Of a stretch of DNA of 64,000 nucleotides, positions 7,468-60,585 are shown piece after piece. This stretch comes from Methanocaldococcus sp. 28A (lineage in GTDB: Archaea; AGJL01; Methanococci; Methanococcales; Methanocaldococcaceae). Location of the stretch: assembly GCA_049852185.1 (NCBI GenBank), contig CP187540.1; one strand, 5' to 3'. The position numbers and the translations under genes are program-made. The notes beneath the pieces were generated by a model. That model ran no database searches. It had not been told where the DNA came from and saw nothing but the letters and a program-made list of their open reading frames with translations. Numbering within the stretch: the first letter of the stretch is position 1; each line of letters opens with the position of its first letter.

Positions 7468-7812
7468 TTAATACATTCTGAATGTTATCTCTACATGAAT
7501 AGATTCAATTTTAACACATTTAGCAAATCCTAACATCTCCAGTTGAACTCTTCCAGCTATAATCTCTTTTTCTTCAAAGCCATTTATCATTTGAGGAACT
7601 AATGAGACTTTAATAACTCTTCCTAAAACTCCTTCTGTTCCTGTTCTTAAATCTTCTCTAAGTGTTGATGTTATAAAAACTAAATCTCCATCTTTTAAAT
7701 TTTTAACTGTCTCTAAGTTCAATGCATTAATTAAAGTGAAAGTTTTTACATGATTTTCAATAAAATCATTAATTGCATTTTCGCTAATCCCAAATAATCC
7801 ATATACTTTCAT
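7468..7812 (-). CDS. Conserved archaeal protein (DUF473-like)
   Basis: 114 aa ORF with GGTGA RBS; family from recollection. Confidence 0.65.
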   Translation of the reverse strand: MKVYGLFGISENAINDFIENHVKTFTLINALNLETVKNLKDGDLVFITSTLREDLRTGTEGVLGRVIKVSLVPQMINGFEEKEIIAGRVQLEMLGFAKCVKIESIHVEITFRMY

Positions 7813-7888
7813 AATTTCACCAATTAACTACAAATAGTGCCCTATTTTTAATATATAAACTGCGAAAGTCCTATTAAATACAAAGCTA

Positions 7889-12027: not shown

Positions 12028-12786
12028 TTATAAAATGTCTAAAATTATATATAACATTTCTTTACTGTTTGCTACAATAATATTTAATCTATCTATTGCA
12101 TTTAGCTCAAATTTCAGCTCATTTCCATTCTCATCAGTTACTAAAGCTCCAGCTTCTTTGCATATTATATATGATGAAGCAATATCCACAGCTCTAACTT
12201 TAGGGCGGATATCAAAAACAGCATCTAAAGTGCCTTTAGCTACATAGCACATTTCTAAGCCAAAGGCTCCAAATATTCTAACTCTTTTAATTTTTTCTCT
12301 TAATTTTTCTAAATTTACTTTTTTATTTGGATAATAACTTATAGTTATGTCATTAGGATTAAATTCTTTAACCTTAATTTTTTCTCCATTTAAATATGCT
12401 CCTTTTTTATAATAAGCTTCATAAAAGTTTTTAGTTAAAAATTCATAAGTTAAGCCATAATATGGTTTGTTATTTTTAAATACTCCAAAGCAGAATGCAA
12501 AAAATGGAATTCCGTTTATAAAATTAAATGAGCCATCTATTGGGTCTATAACTACAGTCCATTCACTTTCATTATCTATAACTCCAATTTCTTCACTTAC
12601 AATATTTACATTTAAAGGTTGTAGATAATTTAAAGCAATATTTTCACTTAGTTTATCAAAAATTTCAGTTTTGTCTCCACTTGGCGACCTTCCAACAACA
12701 TAGGATTTATCTTTTCTACCAAAATAACTCAATATATTTTTTTCAATTTCTTTTACTATATTTCTCCCAATTTCATCCCATTTCAT
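12028..12786 (-). CDS. suhB: Bifunctional inositol monophosphatase / fructose-1,6-bisphosphatase
   Basis: SEE, VIDPIDGSFNF, VDIA motifs. Confidence 0.92.
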   Translation of the reverse strand: MKWDEIGRNIVKEIEKNILSYFGRKDKSYVVGRSPSGDKTEIFDKLSENIALNYLQPLNVNIVSEEIGVIDNESEWTVVIDPIDGSFNFINGIPFFAFCFGVFKNNKPYYGLTYEFLTKNFYEAYYKKGAYLNGEKIKVKEFNPNDITISYYPNKKVNLEKLREKIKRVRIFGAFGLEMCYVAKGTLDAVFDIRPKVRAVDIASSYIICKEAGALVTDENGNELKFELNAIDRLNIIVANSKEMLYIILDIL

Positions 12787-12907: not shown

Positions 12908-13177
12908 CTAAGATTTCTTCAATTCATCCTTTATTTTTAAGTAAGTTATTGGTATCCAAAACATTAAAGACAAAATGTTAAATACTATTATAGGGTAATC
13001 TCTCTTTAATATTCCATACACCAACCAGAGAGTTAATCCCGTAGTGAATGTTATAACAAAAGCTAATGAGATATTACTCATATCTCTCTCCTTCAACGAC
13101 TTTATTAATTGAGGGAGAGATGCAAAGGTTGTTAAAGTTCCTGCAATATATCCAATAATAGTTACATCAAAATCCAT
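12908..13177 (-). CDS. SemiSWEET (PQ-loop) transporter
   Basis: LPQLIKS PQ motif, three TM helices, WLVYG. Confidence 0.88.
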   Translation of the reverse strand: MDFDVTIIGYIAGTLTTFASLPQLIKSLKERDMSNISLAFVITFTTGLTLWLVYGILKRDYPIIVFNILSLMFWIPITYLKIKDELKKS

Positions 13178-19637: not shown

Positions 19638-20273
19638 CTATTTAATATACTTTAAAATCTCTCTTAAGTCCCTCTTCTCTATACAAATATCTGCCTTCTC
19701 TTTTAAAATTGGCTTAGCACAAAAAGCAATTTTTAAGCCAGCTTTTTTAAACATACTTATGTCATTAGCTCCATCTCCTACAGCAACAGTATCTTCTAAT
19801 TTTATTCCTTCAATTTTAGCAATTTTTTCTAAAATTTCTCCTTTAGCATCTTCTTTTAAAACTTCTCCTTCAACTTCTCCGGTTAGTTTTCCATCTTTAA
19901 CAATTAACCTATTTGCAAAAGCATAATCTAACCCCAATTTTTCTTTAATTTTATTAACCGCAATATCAAAACCTCCACTAACAACAGCAACAACATAACC
20001 TCTATTTTTTAGCTCTTTTATAGTTTCTTCAGCTCCTTCAGTTGGTGTTATTCTTTCAATAGCTCTTTCAACCTTTTCAATTGGAAGGTCTTTTAATAAA
20101 CTAACTCTTTTTTTTAATGATTGTTCAAAATTTAATTTCCCTTCCATCGCTTCTTTTGTTATCCTCTTAACCTCTTCCTCAACTCCAGCCTCTCTTGCAA
20201 TCTCATCAATTGTCTCATTATTAACCAATGTGCTATCAAAATCAAATAAAATAAGCTTTTTTTTCTTCTCCAT
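19638..20273 (-). CDS. serB: Phosphoserine phosphatase
   Basis: FDFDSTL, SGGF, GDGAND HAD motifs. Confidence 0.96.
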   Translation of the reverse strand: MEKKKKLILFDFDSTLVNNETIDEIAREAGVEEEVKRITKEAMEGKLNFEQSLKKRVSLLKDLPIEKVERAIERITPTEGAEETIKELKNRGYVVAVVSGGFDIAVNKIKEKLGLDYAFANRLIVKDGKLTGEVEGEVLKEDAKGEILEKIAKIEGIKLEDTVAVGDGANDISMFKKAGLKIAFCAKPILKEKADICIEKRDLREILKYIK

Positions 20274-20340
20274 TCAATCACCAACTTTAAAAATTTTAAA
20301 ATTAAGTAAATTTTAATAAAAAAGTTTAAAATAAAATTAA

Positions 20341-20592
20341 TTATTCAATTTTCTCAACTTTTATCTCATAATCATGGATTACAGGGTTTGCTAAGAGCTT
20401 TTTACACATCTCTTCAACTTCTTCTTTAACTTTTTCTTCATTTTCTCCTTCCATTATTATATCTATCATCTTGTATGTTTGAACTTCTTTGACATTACTA
20501 AACCCTAAAAAGTTTAATGCCCTCTGTATTGTCCTACCTTCTGGGTTTAAAACTCCTTTTTTTAGTTTTATTATAACTGTTGCTTTAAACAT
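20341..20592 (-). CDS. purS: FGAM synthase subunit PurS
   Basis: LKKGVLNPEG, LLANPVI. Confidence 0.95.
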   Translation of the reverse strand: MFKATVIIKLKKGVLNPEGRTIQRALNFLGFSNVKEVQTYKMIDIIMEGENEEKVKEEVEEMCKKLLANPVIHDYEIKVEKIE

Positions 20593-20613
20593 AATATTTC
20601 ACCATTTTAAATA

Positions 20614-21342
20614 TTATAATAAACCTAACCTCTCAGCGACAATTCTATATTTAGCGATAACATCTCCTAAATCTTTCCTAAATACATCCTTATCTAACAC
20701 ATCTCTTGTTTCTTTGTCCCACAATCTCATAGTATCTGGGCTTATTTCATCAGCAACTAATAAATTGCCATCTTTATCTCTACCAATTTCAATTTTGAAA
20801 TCAACTAATATTATGCCTTTCTTGTCAAATAATTCCTTTAAAACCTCATTAACTTTTAGAGCAATTTCTTTAATCTTGTCTAATTCCTCTCTTGTAGCTA
20901 AACCTAAAGCTACGGCAATGTCTTCATTTAACATTGGGTCTCCATACTCATCATTTTTGTAATCAAATTGAACAATTGGAAATGGTAGTTCTTTTCCTTC
21001 TTCAAAAGGATATCTTCTGCATAAGCTTCCTGCAGCTATATTTCTAACTATAACTTCTATTGGTATAATCTCAACTTTTTTGGCTACCATATATCTTGGT
21101 TCTATATACTTTATATAATGTGTTTTTATCCCATTATCTTCCAAAACTTCAAATAATTTTGATGAAATTAGGGCGTTTAAATACCCCTTATTCTCTTTAA
21201 CATCATGCTTAGCTCCATTTCCAGCAGTTATATCATCTCTAAACTCAATTAAAACTTTATCATCATCAATCTCATAGATAGACTTTGCTTTTCCACTGTA
21301 TAGTGGCTGCTTTTTTAATATTTCTTCCAATTTTATCTCCAT
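20614..21342 (-). CDS. purC: SAICAR synthase
   Basis: GKAK, IPIEVIVRN, LVDFKIE, ADEISPDTMRLWD. Confidence 0.97.
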   Translation of the reverse strand: MEIKLEEILKKQPLYSGKAKSIYEIDDDKVLIEFRDDITAGNGAKHDVKENKGYLNALISSKLFEVLEDNGIKTHYIKYIEPRYMVAKKVEIIPIEVIVRNIAAGSLCRRYPFEEGKELPFPIVQFDYKNDEYGDPMLNEDIAVALGLATREELDKIKEIALKVNEVLKELFDKKGIILVDFKIEIGRDKDGNLLVADEISPDTMRLWDKETRDVLDKDVFRKDLGDVIAKYRIVAERLGLL

Positions 21343-21450
21343 ACTTTCCCACCTAAGGAAGTTTATTGAGTTATAATCTTAAATTTAATTACTTTTATGG
21401 AAAAATAGTTTAACTTAATGTAATATAAATGTAATATAAAAATTTTAGCT

Positions 21451-21556
21451 TATAGTTGTGTGCAAAATAAAATAAACTTTAAAAAGGAAATTTTGAAAGC
21501 CTTCCTTAAAGAGGGCATTCATTAATACCTTATTTATTATAAACACTTTTGCACAA
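21451..21556. mobile_element. MITE family A copy
   Basis: TATAGTTGTGTGCAAAA left end, degenerate right end. Confidence 0.8.
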
Positions 21557-21586
21557 TAATAGGAACAAAAAAGATATTAAAGATTT

Positions 21587-21622
21587 TCGATGTGCCTCCC
21601 TTAAACGGGTTCGGCACATCGA
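21587..21622 (-). promoter_or_regulatory. Archaeal SECIS element in the selD 3' UTR
   Basis: mRNA UCGAUGUGCC-GAA-CCC-GUUUAA-GGG-A-GGCACAUCGA: 10-bp stem, GAA/A internal loop and three C-G pairs, matching the Methanococcales SECIS consensus. Confidence 0.93.
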
Positions 21623-21659
21623 CTAAAGACGTTTTTACATAGAATCTTTAATAGATATG

Positions 21660-21681
21660 AACTGCCCAGCACCGAGTTAGA
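21660..21681 (-). other. 22-nt antisense box at the selD stop codon, complementary to 22641-22662
   Basis: Plus strand AACTGCCCAGCACCGAGTTAGA is the exact reverse complement of TCTAACTCGGTGCTGGGCAGTT at 22641-22662. Confidence 0.95.
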
Positions 21682-22726
21682 CTTCAACTATTTCAACATC
21701 TTTACTTAATATCGCTTTTCCTTCACCTTTTTTCTTTACTTTTCCAACTTCAAAAGCATAACATTTAGCTTTTTCTAATTCATTAATTAAATCATCTTTA
21801 TATTCTTTTTTTGCAGATATTAGTAATCCTCCCGCAGTTTCTGCTCCATATCCTTCCAATAATGCATGGCCAAATAATTTACTCAACTCAGGAGTCTTTT
21901 TTATGCATGGTAAAGTATGGATTTCTATTAAAACATTGCTGTTCTTAGCCATTTCATTTGAATGTCCCAATATTCCAAATCCAGTAATATCAGTTAAGGC
22001 ATTTGCTATTTTATCTCCAACTCTTTCTTCTGCTTTTCTTAAAGCCATTAATCCATATCTATTTGATGTTGTCATTATTTCTATTGCTTTATCTATAATG
22101 TACTTTTTTTCCTCATCAGTAATGTTGATTAAATCTTTAAATTCCTCGGGAATCCTTGATAATGCCATCGCTGTTTGAGTTCCTAAGGGTTTTGTTAATA
22201 TTAAAATATCTCCCTCCTTAGCTCCACTTTTTGTTAGAACTTCTTCTTCTCTTCCAACGCCAGTAACTGCTCCTCCAATCAAAGGCCATGGGTTTAGTAT
22301 AGTATGCCCACCAACAATTGAGGTCTTATTTTCTCTACAAAAGTCTTGAAATCCTTTTAACATCTCCCTAACTATTTGTATTGGAAGTTTTTCAGGAATT
22401 CCAACAATTGCTAAAACACCTACTATATCTAATAATCCCATAGCGTAGATATCGCTTGTTGAATTACAGGCAGCTATCTTTCCTTGTATATATGGATTAT
22501 CTACAATCGGAGTGAAAACATCTACAGTCTTTGCAATGACTAATCCATTTCTTTTAATTACTGATGCATCATCACCTAATCCAACCAAAATATTTTTGTC
22601 TGATAAATCCTCTTCATTAACTATTCCTTTAACTAAAGACTCTAACTCGGTGCTGGGCAGTTTACAAGCTCATCCATGTAATTTAACCAATTCAGTTAAT
22701 TTTATTTTTTCATCTACTTTTTCCAT
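21677..22726 (-). CDS. selD: Selenophosphate synthetase, selenoprotein (UGA = Sec19), 349 aa
   Basis: Reading through TGA at 22672-22670 gives MEKVDEKIKLTELVKLHG-U-ACKLPSTELE with a GGTGA RBS; GDDA, TVDVFTP, GGHT, DITGFG motifs; the ORF track misses the N-terminus. Confidence 0.96.
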
Positions 22727-23239
22727 ATTTTCACCAGTGAAAGTTATAAATTTATAAACCTAACCAATAACTAATTCTATTAATAAATTTGATGAGCTAT
22801 AAAATACTACCAATTAGACTTTCTAATAACCTTTGAGTTATTAAAGTTTTATATTCTTCAAAATACCATAAAGATGTTAAGAAATAGCTCACAATTGCAT
22901 TTGCCCAAGCTTATATATTTTGGAATCTTATTATCATGGTATTTTATGTTTAGATATAGGGGATTTTAAACCAAATTTTAACTTATTTAAACGCTTAGAG
23001 TGCTATGATAATGAGATTGTAAATTATTTGTTTGAATGCAAAATATTTATGAATTGGATTTATTATTGGATGAGAGTTATAAAAACTCCAATATAAGAAA
23101 TGAGCTATCAAAAACTATAAAAATTAGAGCAATTGAGCTTTATAAAAGGATATATTAATTGAATATAGACACCTAATGGTGTCAAAGTTCTAAATTTAAT
23201 ATGTAATCTGCGAAAGTCCTATTTTAAGGATGTGAGAGA

Positions 23240-24367
23240 ATGATAAGCAATAGATGTAAGAATATAAAACCATCAGCAATTAGAGAAGTATTTAATTTAG
23301 CAACCTCTGACTGTATAAATTTGGGAATTGGTGAGCCAGATTTTGATACTCCAAAACATATTATTGAGGAAGCAAAAAAAGCATTAGATGAAGGAAAAAC
23401 TCACTACTCTCCAAATAATGGAATTCCAGAGCTTAGAGAAGAGATAAGTAACAAATTAAAGAAAGATTATAATTTAGATATTAATAAGGACAATATTATT
23501 GTAACCTGTGGAGCTTCAGAGGCGTTAATGCTTTCCATTATGACTTTGGTTGATAGAGGGGATGAGGTTTTAATCCCTAATCCATCTTTTGTGTCTTACT
23601 TTTCATTAACAGAGTTCGCTGAAGGGAAGATTAAGAGTATAAATTTAGATGATAATTTTGATATTGATTTAGAGCAAGTTAAGGAATCAATAACCAAAAA
23701 AACAAAATTAATAATCTTTAACTCTCCAGCAAACCCTACTGGAAAAGTTTATGATAAAGAAACTATTAAAGGATTGGCTGAGATAGCTGAAGATTACAAT
23801 TTAATTATTGTTTCAGATGAAGTTTATGATAAAATTATTTATGAGAAAAAACATTTCTCACCAATGCAATTTACTGATAGATGTATATTAATTAATGGAT
23901 TTTCTAAAACCTATGCTATGACTGGCTGGAGAATTGGTTATTTGGCTGTTTCTGATTCACTAAATAAGGAGTTGGATTTAATCAACAATATGATAAAAAT
24001 ACACCAATACAGCTTTGCCTGTGCTACAACTTTTGCTCAATATGGTGCTTTATCTGCCTTAAGAGGTAGTCAAAGATGTGTTGAAGAGATGGTTAATGAT
24101 TTTAGAAAAAGGAGAGATTTAATTTATAAGGGGTTGAAGGATATTTTTAAAGTTAATAAACCTGATGGAGCTTTCTACATATTCCCAAATGTGTCTGAGT
24201 ATGGTGATGGAGTAGAGGTTGCTAAAAAGTTAATTGAAAATAAAGTTCTATGTGTTCCAGGAATTGCGTTTGGTGAAAATGGAGCTAACTACATTAGGTT
24301 TAGTTATGCTACAAAATATGATGATATCGAAAAAGCTATTGAGATAATAAAAAAGATTTTTATTTAA
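23240..24367 (+). CDS. Aspartate aminotransferase (class I PLP enzyme)
   Basis: NLGIGEPDF, NSPANPTG, SDEVY, GFSKTYAMTGWRIG. Confidence 0.92.
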   Translation: MISNRCKNIKPSAIREVFNLATSDCINLGIGEPDFDTPKHIIEEAKKALDEGKTHYSPNNGIPELREEISNKLKKDYNLDINKDNIIVTCGASEALMLSIMTLVDRGDEVLIPNPSFVSYFSLTEFAEGKIKSINLDDNFDIDLEQVKESITKKTKLIIFNSPANPTGKVYDKETIKGLAEIAEDYNLIIVSDEVYDKIIYEKKHFSPMQFTDRCILINGFSKTYAMTGWRIGYLAVSDSLNKELDLINNMIKIHQYSFACATTFAQYGALSALRGSQRCVEEMVNDFRKRRDLIYKGLKDIFKVNKPDGAFYIFPNVSEYGDGVEVAKKLIENKVLCVPGIAFGENGANYIRFSYATKYDDIEKAIEIIKKIFI

Positions 24368-59012: not shown

Positions 59013-59126
59013 TTATTCCATTTTATTAAAGCATAGAGTTAAGAGGGCATCTTCAAAAGACCAAACAGGTTCATAACCTAAATATTTTTTAGCGTTATTT
59101 AAATCTGCCTGTGTAAAGTCTTGATA
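59013..59126 (-). pseudogene. 3' remnant of an NAD-dependent epimerase/dehydratase gene
   Basis: Reads YQDFTQADLNNAKKYLGYEPVWSFEDA, typical of extended-SDR C-termini; cut exactly at an IS end. Confidence 0.6.
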
Positions 59127-60312
59127 CAGTATCTACGAATATGCATAGGTATACACAACCAAGTATTACGCATAACCATGATTGAATAATCAAACTCATC
59201 TAATAACTTAGTAATTTCGACGATGGAGAATTTTAAAGAAATACATTCTTTTTTATTACGAATTTTAATCCATAAGTTATGAATAACGCATTTAAGCATA
59301 AAAAGGAACAACCTAACTTTTAAAGAGGTTGATTTCGTTTTTATAACTGCATCTTTAAGCATTCTAAATTGTGTTTCAATATTCCATCGTTTTTTATACA
59401 TTTTTATGTAAGATTCTTGATTTTCAAAGTTGATATTAGTTAAAAAGGTATATTATACCTTTTTTCTTTCGTTGTTTGTAATTATTTCGTCCTCAGCAAT
59501 AACTAATTTAGGAATAGTATTTTTATCAATAACATAATCAAATTTCCATTTTTCTTCTTTTTTATATTCATCCTCAAGATAGTATTTAACTTTATCATTT
59601 TTCGGAATAAAGCTTATGTAATTACATCCGTATTTTTCAAAAATTTTTATTATTTCAAAATTTTTAAACTCTCTATCGGTAAGTACTACAATATTAGATG
59701 GATTTATTTCTAAATCGTTAATAGTAAAGTCCATAAATTCCTTCACATGATTAAGCAACGAATATTCCTTAAAAAGAATATCACAATAGATTATTAACGA
59801 AAAATCTTCTGTATGTAAAGTAGCAGCTATATATTTATACGAACCAGTACTGCCCCTCTCTTTTCTATATTCGTGAATTAATTCTAAATCTAAATTATTA
59901 CCATAATAATGCGTATCTATCGATAGGCAAAAATTTCTATTATTTTTTTTAAATCATTGAATATATTTTTAACAAAAGATTTATAAATTTCTTTAAACAT
60001 AGAATTACCTGCCTTATTTATATATCGATAGTAAAAGTCTGCCGATGGATAATTTAGCTTGCTAATGGTCTCTAAATATGTATTATATTATTCGACATCG
60101 CCTCTATAAATCCTCTTGTATAATCTTCAACTCGATAAATCCTTGGACAAATTTGAAGAACATTGTTTATGAATTCGTTAAATTCATTAAATGATTTTAT
60201 AGCCAACAATCTTATGTCGTTCATTGTTCTACATCCTCCTATTTTTTTAATAACTATTCGATATTATGAAATATTAACTTTTTTATTTATTTTATGATGT
60301 TCGGAGATACTG
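59127..60312 (-). mobile_element. Decayed ISH3-like (IS4-superfamily DDE) insertion sequence
   Basis: Terminal inverted repeats CAGTATCT(A/C)CGAA(T/C)AT; transposase pieces LSIDTH, VLTDREF, YKKRWNIETQFR; GGAGG RBS and ATG at 60224; multiple frameshifts. Confidence 0.82.
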
Positions 60313-60344
60313 TAAATAATTGAATAATCGAGCTCATCTAATAA

Positions 60345-60435
60345 TAGGACTTTCGCACTTTATGTATTAGTTTGGAATTTAGACACCTTTAAGGTGTCCA
60401 TGTTCAATAAAAAATTTATTCTTACGAAAGTCCTA
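60345..60435. mobile_element. MITE family B copy
   Basis: TAGGACTTTCGCA...TACGAAAGTCCTA with GACACCTT/AAGGTGTC hairpin. Confidence 0.85.
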
Positions 60436-60564
60436 TAAAAAAGAATGTATTTCTTTAAAATTCTTCATCGTCGAAATATGTAAGTTATTAAATGAGTTCG
60501 ATTATTCAATCATGGTTATGCGTAATACTCCGTTGTGTATACCTATGCATATTCGTAGATACTG
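60436..60564 (+). repeat. Inverted second copy of the ISH3-like right end
   Basis: ~128 bp reverse complement of 59127-59254 with a few substitutions. Confidence 0.88.
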
Positions 60565-60585
60565 TTTTATGTTCTAAGGGATAAT

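Follow-up and report, generated by a model that had tools for sequence, protein, structure and literature searches.

The window analysed here is a 64,000-nt stretch of Methanocaldococcus sp. 28A (contig CP187540.1), and its minus strand carries selD, the gene for selenophosphate synthetase, which contains one in-frame UGA codon for selenocysteine (Sec). The element under study is a long-range helix in the selD mRNA that joins the segment just 3' of this UGA to sequence beside the Sec insertion sequence (SECIS) hairpin in the 3' untranslated region (UTR). In the coordinates of the window, the locus is laid out as follows.

21677..22726, minus strand: selD coding sequence (CDS), selenophosphate synthetase, 349 aa, one in-frame TGA (Sec19); from the open reading frame (ORF) read with TGA as U, and from orthologues
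22670..22672, minus strand: UGA(Sec) codon, context LHG-U-ACKLP
22641..22662, minus strand: arm 1, AACTGCCCAGCACCGAGTTAGA; starts 10 nt past the U of the UGA and encodes K-L-P-S-T-E-L-E in rare codons ending in G or C
21660..21681, minus strand: arm 2, exact reverse complement of arm 1; covers the TAA stop (21679-21677) and reaches 17 nt into the 3' UTR
21623..21659, minus strand: 37-nt linker, rich in A and U, that separates arm 2 from the SECIS (36 nt if one extra basal pair is counted)
21587..21622, minus strand: archaeal SECIS hairpin; from our own pattern scans, and recovered in the full-length mRNA fold at 37-85 °C

The two arms are perfectly complementary over 22 bp with 959 nt in between, and 12 of the 22 arm bases are G or C in a genome of 1.556 Mb with 29.7% GC. 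The SECIS adjoins the same end of the helix as the UGA. Both the duplex and this topology had been put forward in an initial annotation of the locus, and the sequence confirms them, together with the coordinates, base counts, GC content, linker length and codon endings given there. The SECIS itself (gtcgatgtgcc-GAA-ccc-GTTTAA-ggg-A-ggcacatcgaa) consists of a 10-bp basal stem, a GAA bulge, a CCC/GGG apical stem, a 6-nt loop and an opposite A. It is thus of the GAA_A euryarchaeal type, a UTR hairpin with the opposite A and G-C clamps on both sides, and the same GAA/A architecture is present in 29 of the 29 selD loci scanned.

Is the selD helix more than a chance complementarity? In AT-rich sequence, length alone does not discriminate for helices of 13 bp or less, since other windows reach maxima of 10-20 bp with means of about 10 bp. 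Within this selD, the helix of the post-UGA window has 22 bp, whereas 40 other CDS windows reach 14 bp at most and 11.2 bp on average. The codons of arm 1 are also unusual. Among 579 long ORFs of the genome, in which GC at third codon positions is 0.207, CTG makes up 1.4% of its synonymous set, CCC 3.2%, ACC 7.8%, AGC 10% and GAG 34%, and the relative usages of the rare codons multiply to about 1e-6. Genome-wide there are 16 perfect inverted pairs of at least 22 nt spaced by 3 kb or less, the selD pair included. The existence of the others, and of a dispersed repeat copy just downstream of selD, could be taken to favour a DNA-level origin or chance: a recombination or inversion site, a mobile-element relic, an inverted duplication or repeats kept alike by gene conversion. 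In our own reading of what is an unannotated list, the other pairs look like members of a dispersed repeat family or clustered inverted duplications. The selD 22-mer occurs nowhere in the genome except at the two arm sites, which counts against a DNA-level origin.

Conservation speaks more directly to this point. When 40 genomes of the class were searched for SelD, 39 had the gene, and all 38 matches that cover the Sec site contain exactly one TGA. Thirty selD loci were obtained and 29 parsed, one (L011) being dropped because it ends ahead of the stop codon; two genomes, G034 and G029, were left out of the set because the 3' flank or the 5' part of the gene is missing. In what follows, g1 is the genus of the window, g5 its sister genus, and g2-g4 are three other genera. 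A helix of 17-22 bp between the post-UGA segment and the region of the stop codon and 3' UTR is present in 18/18 complete loci of g1 and g5, and in each of these loci it exceeds every other CDS window (other maxima 10-16 bp). Likewise, all six complete loci from named records, which include Methanocaldococcus sp. 16A (97% identity), M. indicus SL43 and metagenome-assembled genomes of the Methanocaldococcus lineage, carry a helix of 19-22 bp. Conservation among orthologues therefore holds for g1 and g5 and fails beyond them: the helix is found in 0/18 loci of g2-g4 (11, and 7 added later, two of them with short 3' flanks), where complementarity amounts to a background of 8-13 bp at scattered positions. 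The g2-g4 genes retain the UGA and the SECIS, and in most of them no more than about 15 nt separate the stop codon from the start of the SECIS. The helix is likewise found in none of the four records named Methanothermococcus with adequate flank, and 11 of 13 Asgard selD loci with a UGA could be parsed and gave background helices of 10-12 bp only.

We aligned the 18 selD mRNAs of g1 and g5 with MAFFT and scored a 21-pair helix for covariation. Paired bases fill 94.7% of the cells, and 7 of the 21 pairs have changed on both sides (25 cells); none of 500 shuffles matched these values, and slid registers of the helix are 21-43.5% paired with at most one pair changing on both sides. Parsimony on a tree built from the remainder of selD requires at least 13 independent double substitutions. 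Every fully paired column has as many 5' as 3' changes, on the same branches. Five of the seven covarying columns lie at third codon positions and two at first positions, one of which alters the residue; thus, the UTR arm tracks the drift of the coding arm, which is mostly synonymous. Variants on one side only are G-T in the mRNA sense, that is, G.U pairs on the mRNA that would be C.A mismatches on the opposite strand. Counted from the first base of the stop codon, arm 2 starts between -2 and +2 in 15 loci; in the remaining three of the 18 it starts at +7, +8 and +23, and since it shifts in this way, what is conserved is the pairing.

These observations decide the question raised above. A DNA-level feature would not be expected to tolerate G.U cells on the mRNA strand only, to keep its pairing through at least 13 double substitutions while the 3'-UTR flanks diverged freely, or to move one arm relative to the stop codon, and it would leave unexplained three further genes that share the topology with unrelated sequences (see below); we give such an origin, or chance, a very small probability. 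Covariation, the strand asymmetry of the G.U pairs and the rare codons show that the selD helix is a real RNA-level structure selected on the sense transcript, and that chance and DNA-level explanations are excluded. The initial annotation had read RNA-level selection from the codon endings and had called for a search for compensatory changes among relatives; both the selection and the changes are borne out. The need to pair also accounts for the presence of very rare codons right behind the selD UGA.

Structure prediction is in keeping with this view. We folded the 1182-nt selD mRNA with ViennaRNA at 37, 65 and 85 °C. The predicted minimum free energy (MFE) structures hold 22, 22 and 21 of the 22 arm pairs at these temperatures, with mean pair probabilities for the arm helix of 0.98, 0.96 and 0.89. 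The partner of arm 1 in the full-length fold is arm 2, at a distance of 959 nt, and not a local strand. At 85 °C the MFE of the whole mRNA is -26.3 kcal/mol, the arm-arm duplex alone gives -15.7 kcal/mol, and the SECIS hairpin is also retained. The genus grows at high temperature, and in the model the helix and the SECIS would be nearly the sole stable structures of the selD mRNA at growth temperature.

Is the arrangement confined to selD? The initial annotation predicted similar complementarity in other selenoprotein mRNAs, and it is found for fwuB, hdrA and vhuD: the pairing of a post-UGA segment with sequence just 5' of the SECIS recurs in each. The cluster used was hdrA-vhuD-vhuG-vhuA-vhuU-vhuB-fwuB, which in the genome of the window forms locus L031 (G000:C1:921000-936000). 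Since the fwuB and hdrA helices were found by maximal complementarity, their paired fractions are biased and both-side changes alone are informative. The Cys paralogues of fwdB and hdrA in the same genome, which have no UGA, show helices at background level only.

In fwuB the UGA lies 945 nt from the stop codon. Helices of 9-26 bp, with arm 1 starting at +24 to +34 and the partner in the 3' UTR, occur in 24/29 loci across the class when anchored on the common core, and two further loci have a shifted helix of 9-10 bp. Arm 2 ends 8-19 nt ahead of the SECIS, five columns are compensatory, and the post-UGA helix won the rank test in 18/29 loci. The helix measures 18-26 bp in most of g1, g3 and g5 and 11 bp in g2; the 11-bp helix is not significant by length and is accepted for its homologous position and its spacing of 17-19 nt from the SECIS. 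One locus (L048) was dropped because it matched a Cys-type paralogue. In the coordinates of L031, the fwuB features are as follows.

12026: fwuB UGA
12059-12071: arm 1 of a 13-bp helix
13053-13065: arm 2, ending 17 nt ahead of the SECIS
13085-13120: SECIS

Neither a helix nor a scannable GAA/A SECIS was found within 420 nt of the fwuB stop codon in L047, L049 and L056, all of which keep the UGA, and the SECIS of these loci must lie elsewhere or be atypical. The three belong to deep-branching genomes of the window's genus.

In hdrA the UGA lies 1386 nt from the stop codon. Helices of 15-29 bp starting at +28 to +53 are present in 16/30 loci, arm 2 ending 15-19 nt ahead of the SECIS, and in most of the relatives L063-L091 the pairing region spans +28 to +66. 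Nine columns are compensatory, all of them at third codon positions. Strict SECIS scans of the genome of the window returned four elements (vhuD, vhuU, fwuB and selD) and two rRNA false positives; the hdrA element, which reads UAA here and not GAA, was missed.

Several features of the hdrA UTR are recorded here in their own right. The UAA-bearing hdrA element of this genome can fold as a perfect 12-bp hairpin, and a Cys paralogue of hdrA lies at C1:1087855-1089798. In most of L063-L089 the hdrA SECIS stands between AGAUGA and CUGAU, a bracket similar to a C/D-box or kink-turn motif; we met no description of this bracket in the literature, in which no dedicated search for it was made. Six loci (L067, L068, L073 and L076-L078) have the bracketed mini-hairpin alone, without the GAA/A core, and keep the hdrA UGA. 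The downstream vhuD SECIS possibly serves both genes in these six loci, or the bracket is a protein-binding kink-turn.

The vhuD helix, of 15-16 bp, joins a segment at +48 from UGA2 to the end of the CDS in 15/15 parsed loci of the L062-L078 set; none was found in the loci after that set. Its variation is too small for covariation testing. The helix lies wholly inside the CDS, with arm 2 ending 10 nt ahead of the stop codon, just before the vhuD SECIS. In L031 the vhuD features are these.

7625: vhuD UGA2
7673-7688: arm 1 of a 16-bp helix with two U.G pairs
about 7813-7828: arm 2
7838-7840: stop codon

What does the helix do? We propose that the selD helix probably serves to dock the SECIS near the UGA. 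This reading is preferred because four unrelated sequences place one arm within about 50 nt 3' of a UGA and the other just 5' of a SECIS. In the mechanism that we envisage, the long-range helix of 17-22 bp would loop out the roughly 960 nt of selD coding sequence, so that the SECIS, together with any recruited factor and Sec-tRNA delivery complex, would be held tens of nucleotides, and not 1 kb, from a ribosome with the UGA in its A site. The geometry would then be near the bacterial one, with the SECIS at the mRNA entrance. During decoding of the UGA the helix would lie outside the ribosome footprint or at its very edge; the ribosome would then melt it, and it would re-form between passages. 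The distances agree with such a design. By simple arithmetic, the effective path, counted as UGA to arm 1 plus arm 2 to SECIS, is 20-47 nt in 15 of the 18 selD orthologues and 78-104 nt in the other three, about 32-51 nt in fwuB and about 43-58 nt in most hdrA loci, near the 43 nt published for fdhA.

The position of the helix relative to the UGA bears on a second explanation, in which the helix is purely a roadblock: it slows the ribosome at the UGA so that Sec-tRNA out-competes the release factor, and the place of the SECIS is irrelevant. Across the selD orthologues arm 1 starts at +9 to +13 from the UGA, leaving a spacer of 6-10 nt (7 nt here). A spacer of 6-10 nt is the range of known recoding stimulators, and the rarity of the arm 1 codons likewise counts in favour of a roadblock. 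However, the helix starts 24-53 nt past the UGA in fwuB, hdrA and vhuD, and 43 nt past it in the published fdhA case, too far for a stall with the UGA in the A site. Moreover, a local hairpin would do for a roadblock, and there would be no need for the SECIS flank as partner. We consider this explanation quite improbable. Pausing at the UGA, as the initial annotation had it, thus fits selD but does not extend to fwuB (+24 to +34) or hdrA (+28 to +53).

A third explanation concerns the fate of the mRNA and not the recoding event. When ribosomes fail at the UGA for lack of selenium, the helix would persist and mark the mRNA for a double-strand-specific RNase or, in a variant of the same idea, protect it. 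The helix would then act as a sensor of translation status, and arm 1 would be the first segment cleared of ribosomes upon termination at the UGA. The position of arm 1 right behind the UGA in four genes fits such a read-through sensor as well as it fits docking, and fdhA-style flanks on a Bla reporter in M. maripaludis cut the mRNA about 3-fold, for which the authors raise double-strand-specific RNases (PMC11881835, in the passages available). A turnover element leaves unexplained the narrow spacing between arm 2 and the SECIS (8-19 nt in fwuB, 15-19 nt in hdrA). We regard it as unlikely to be what the helix is for, and a sensor or turnover role may coexist with docking.

Several observations weigh against docking. 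Decoding of the selD UGA dispenses with the helix throughout the g2-g4 loci, and the genome of the window has itself lost the hdrA helix, its UTR arm having decayed (L031 7274-7318) while the hdrA UGA is kept. The selD linker is looser than in fwuB and hdrA, with 11-36 nt in 15 orthologues and 65-94 nt in the remaining three of the 18. The helix has to be opened by each ribosome that translates the CDS, and arm 2 and the stop codon overlap in most species. In the Bla reporter just mentioned, the sole published test of pairing of this type, the fdhA-style flanks gave no significant change in activity; with the lower mRNA level, normalised activity per mRNA was 2-fold higher (PMC11881835, same passages). 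Finally, similar apparent efficiencies were reported at UGA-SECIS distances of 520-679 nt without engineered pairing, in a study that, in its accessible part, argues against strict distance limits (Peiter and Rother 2022, PMC9622424).

Because selD in g2-g4 lacks the helix, the hdrA helix of this genome is lost and the published reporter was negative, we take the helix to be an efficiency device and not a strict requirement: an enhancer at most, and no substitute for a protein bridge. The proposal of the initial annotation that base pairing replaces a bridging protein was therefore overstated, given that the g2-g4 genes keep UGA and SECIS without it. We infer that Sec is inserted more efficiently with the helix than without it, and that the helix counts most at high temperature, at which the mRNA retains little other structure. 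More tentatively, and as a possibility that falls a little short of probable, we suggest a general rule for the Methanococcales: each selenoprotein mRNA with a distant UGA (selD, fwuB, hdrA, vhuD and the published fdhA) would have evolved its own covarying docking helix; the path from UGA to SECIS would be set at tens of nucleotides; decoding would be geometrically bacterial-like, with RNA pairing doing the bridging job of the eukaryotic SBP2; and helix length would scale with growth temperature. What bears on the last point is that the selD helix is present in records named Methanocaldococcus and absent from those named Methanothermococcus, and that the fwuB helix has 11 bp in g2 against 18-26 bp in most of g1, g3 and g5.

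How does the selD helix relate to known systems? The closest is the fdhA1 mRNA of M. maripaludis: on the two sides of its 5'-UTR SECIS lie stretches of 7 and 10 nt that can pair with the ORF (Peiter et al. 2025, RNA Biol, PMC11881835). According to the accessible passages of that paper, Methanococcales conserve the pairing, which would put the SECIS 43 nt 3' of the UGA and is apparently longer in thermophilic genera. As in fdhA1, sequence adjacent to the selD SECIS pairs with the ORF shortly 3' of the UGA, related Methanococcales keep the pairing (for selD within the clade of g1 and g5), and the pairing is proposed to place the SECIS close to the UGA. Unlike fdhA1, with its 5'-UTR SECIS and short flanks on both sides, selD has its SECIS in the 3' UTR and a single arm of 17-22 bp on the 5' side only, and the loop consists of about 960 nt of CDS downstream of the UGA. 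Since the SECIS lies in the 3' UTR and the arm on its 5' side alone, the selD helix is a variant of the fdhA1 type and not the same element. We found no selD helix in the M. maripaludis species group. The accessible passages of PMC11881835 show no covariation statistics of the kind given here and contain no selD docking; they name 'sps' only as the strongest M. maripaludis SECIS and fwuB only for an AAA variant.

The bacterial SECIS is a CDS hairpin directly 3' of the UGA, with 16-37 nt from the UGA to the apical loop (PMC13188914, in part). The selD arrangement resembles it in placing a structured SECIS near the 3' side of the UGA at the mRNA entrance, at the path length given above. It differs in that the bacterial element is local and bound by SelB, whereas proximity in selD comes from long-range pairing and the SECIS is of the archaeal GAA/A type in the 3' UTR. 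Archaeal SelB is not known to bind the archaeal SECIS.

A further likeness is to the Sec redefinition elements (SREs) that eukaryotes have in the mRNAs of SPS2 and of other selenoproteins (Howard et al. 2005, cited in Mariotti et al. 2015, PMC4561486). The accessible text of Mariotti et al. describes local stem-loops after the UGA in bacterial and eukaryotic SPS genes, and no archaeal long-range helix. The selD helix shares with SREs an RNA structure directly 3' of the UGA in a SelD/SPS gene, beside a 3'-UTR SECIS and at a similar spacing (7-nt spacer). The SRE is a local CDS stem-loop, whereas the partner strand in selD is distal and is the SECIS flank, and no homology is implied. In plant viruses, long-distance RNA pairing stimulates stop-codon readthrough. 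There, as in selD, the sequence right behind the recoded stop finds its partner in a distal 3' element about 1 kb away; unlike readthrough by near-cognate tRNAs in these viruses, the outcome in selD is SECIS-dependent insertion of Sec in a cellular mRNA.

The proposed docking of selD, fwuB and hdrA is thus a 3'-UTR variant and generalisation of a kind of arrangement first reported in 2025 for fdhA, and the statement of the initial annotation that no description was known needs correcting in this respect (PMC11881835, in the parts available). Our full-text literature search found no description of helix docking for a 3'-UTR SECIS, nor of the selD, fwuB and hdrA helices; older subscription papers and the supplements of PMC11881835 (Tables S2-S4, Fig. 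S1) lay outside the search. The accessible text of the 2026 review PMC13188914 makes no mention of SECIS flanks. Both papers, in the passages available, state as an open question how a 3'-UTR SECIS acts on a UGA about 1 kb upstream in archaea, which have no known SBP2 (PMC11881835, PMC13188914). A helix of this kind in four unrelated genes, with compensatory changes in selD, fwuB and hdrA, would provide a specific answer that acts in cis and is open to mutational analysis, and it extends a single published hint (fdhA, 5' UTR) to ordinary 3'-UTR SECIS elements. The helix can also serve as a search criterion for archaeal selenoprotein genes, and it suggests design rules for Sec reporters in thermophiles. 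Should recoding prove independent of it, some other function, mRNA surveillance for example, would be needed to explain the strong covariation.

A few further observations concern the surroundings of selD. An Rfam scan of window positions 20000-24000 gave sub-threshold chance matches only, none reaching the gathering score; whether Rfam holds an archaeal SECIS model was not checked. One small run of a vent metatranscriptome yielded five contigs that cover only pieces of the selD CDS (21791-22712), and since they are only about 90% identical they derive from a relative and not from this genome. Downstream of the SECIS, the sequence contains one more feature.

21567..21572, minus strand: T6 tract, 15 nt past the SECIS, from sequence reading

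The T6 tract is a possible archaeal transcription stop. Directly downstream of the SECIS and the T tract, at 21443-21467 and 21547-21571, lies one copy of a dispersed repeat family made of inverted copies of TTATAGTTGTGTGCAAAA, usually about 98 nt apart, with at least 17 further sites in the genome. Elsewhere in the window, at about 59126-60570 (C1:1435126-1436570), three perfect inverted pairs, each of at least 22 nt and 1.2-1.4 kb apart, are nested in register; such an arrangement suggests either an inverted duplication or a pair of near-identical genes, or an element, in inverted orientation.

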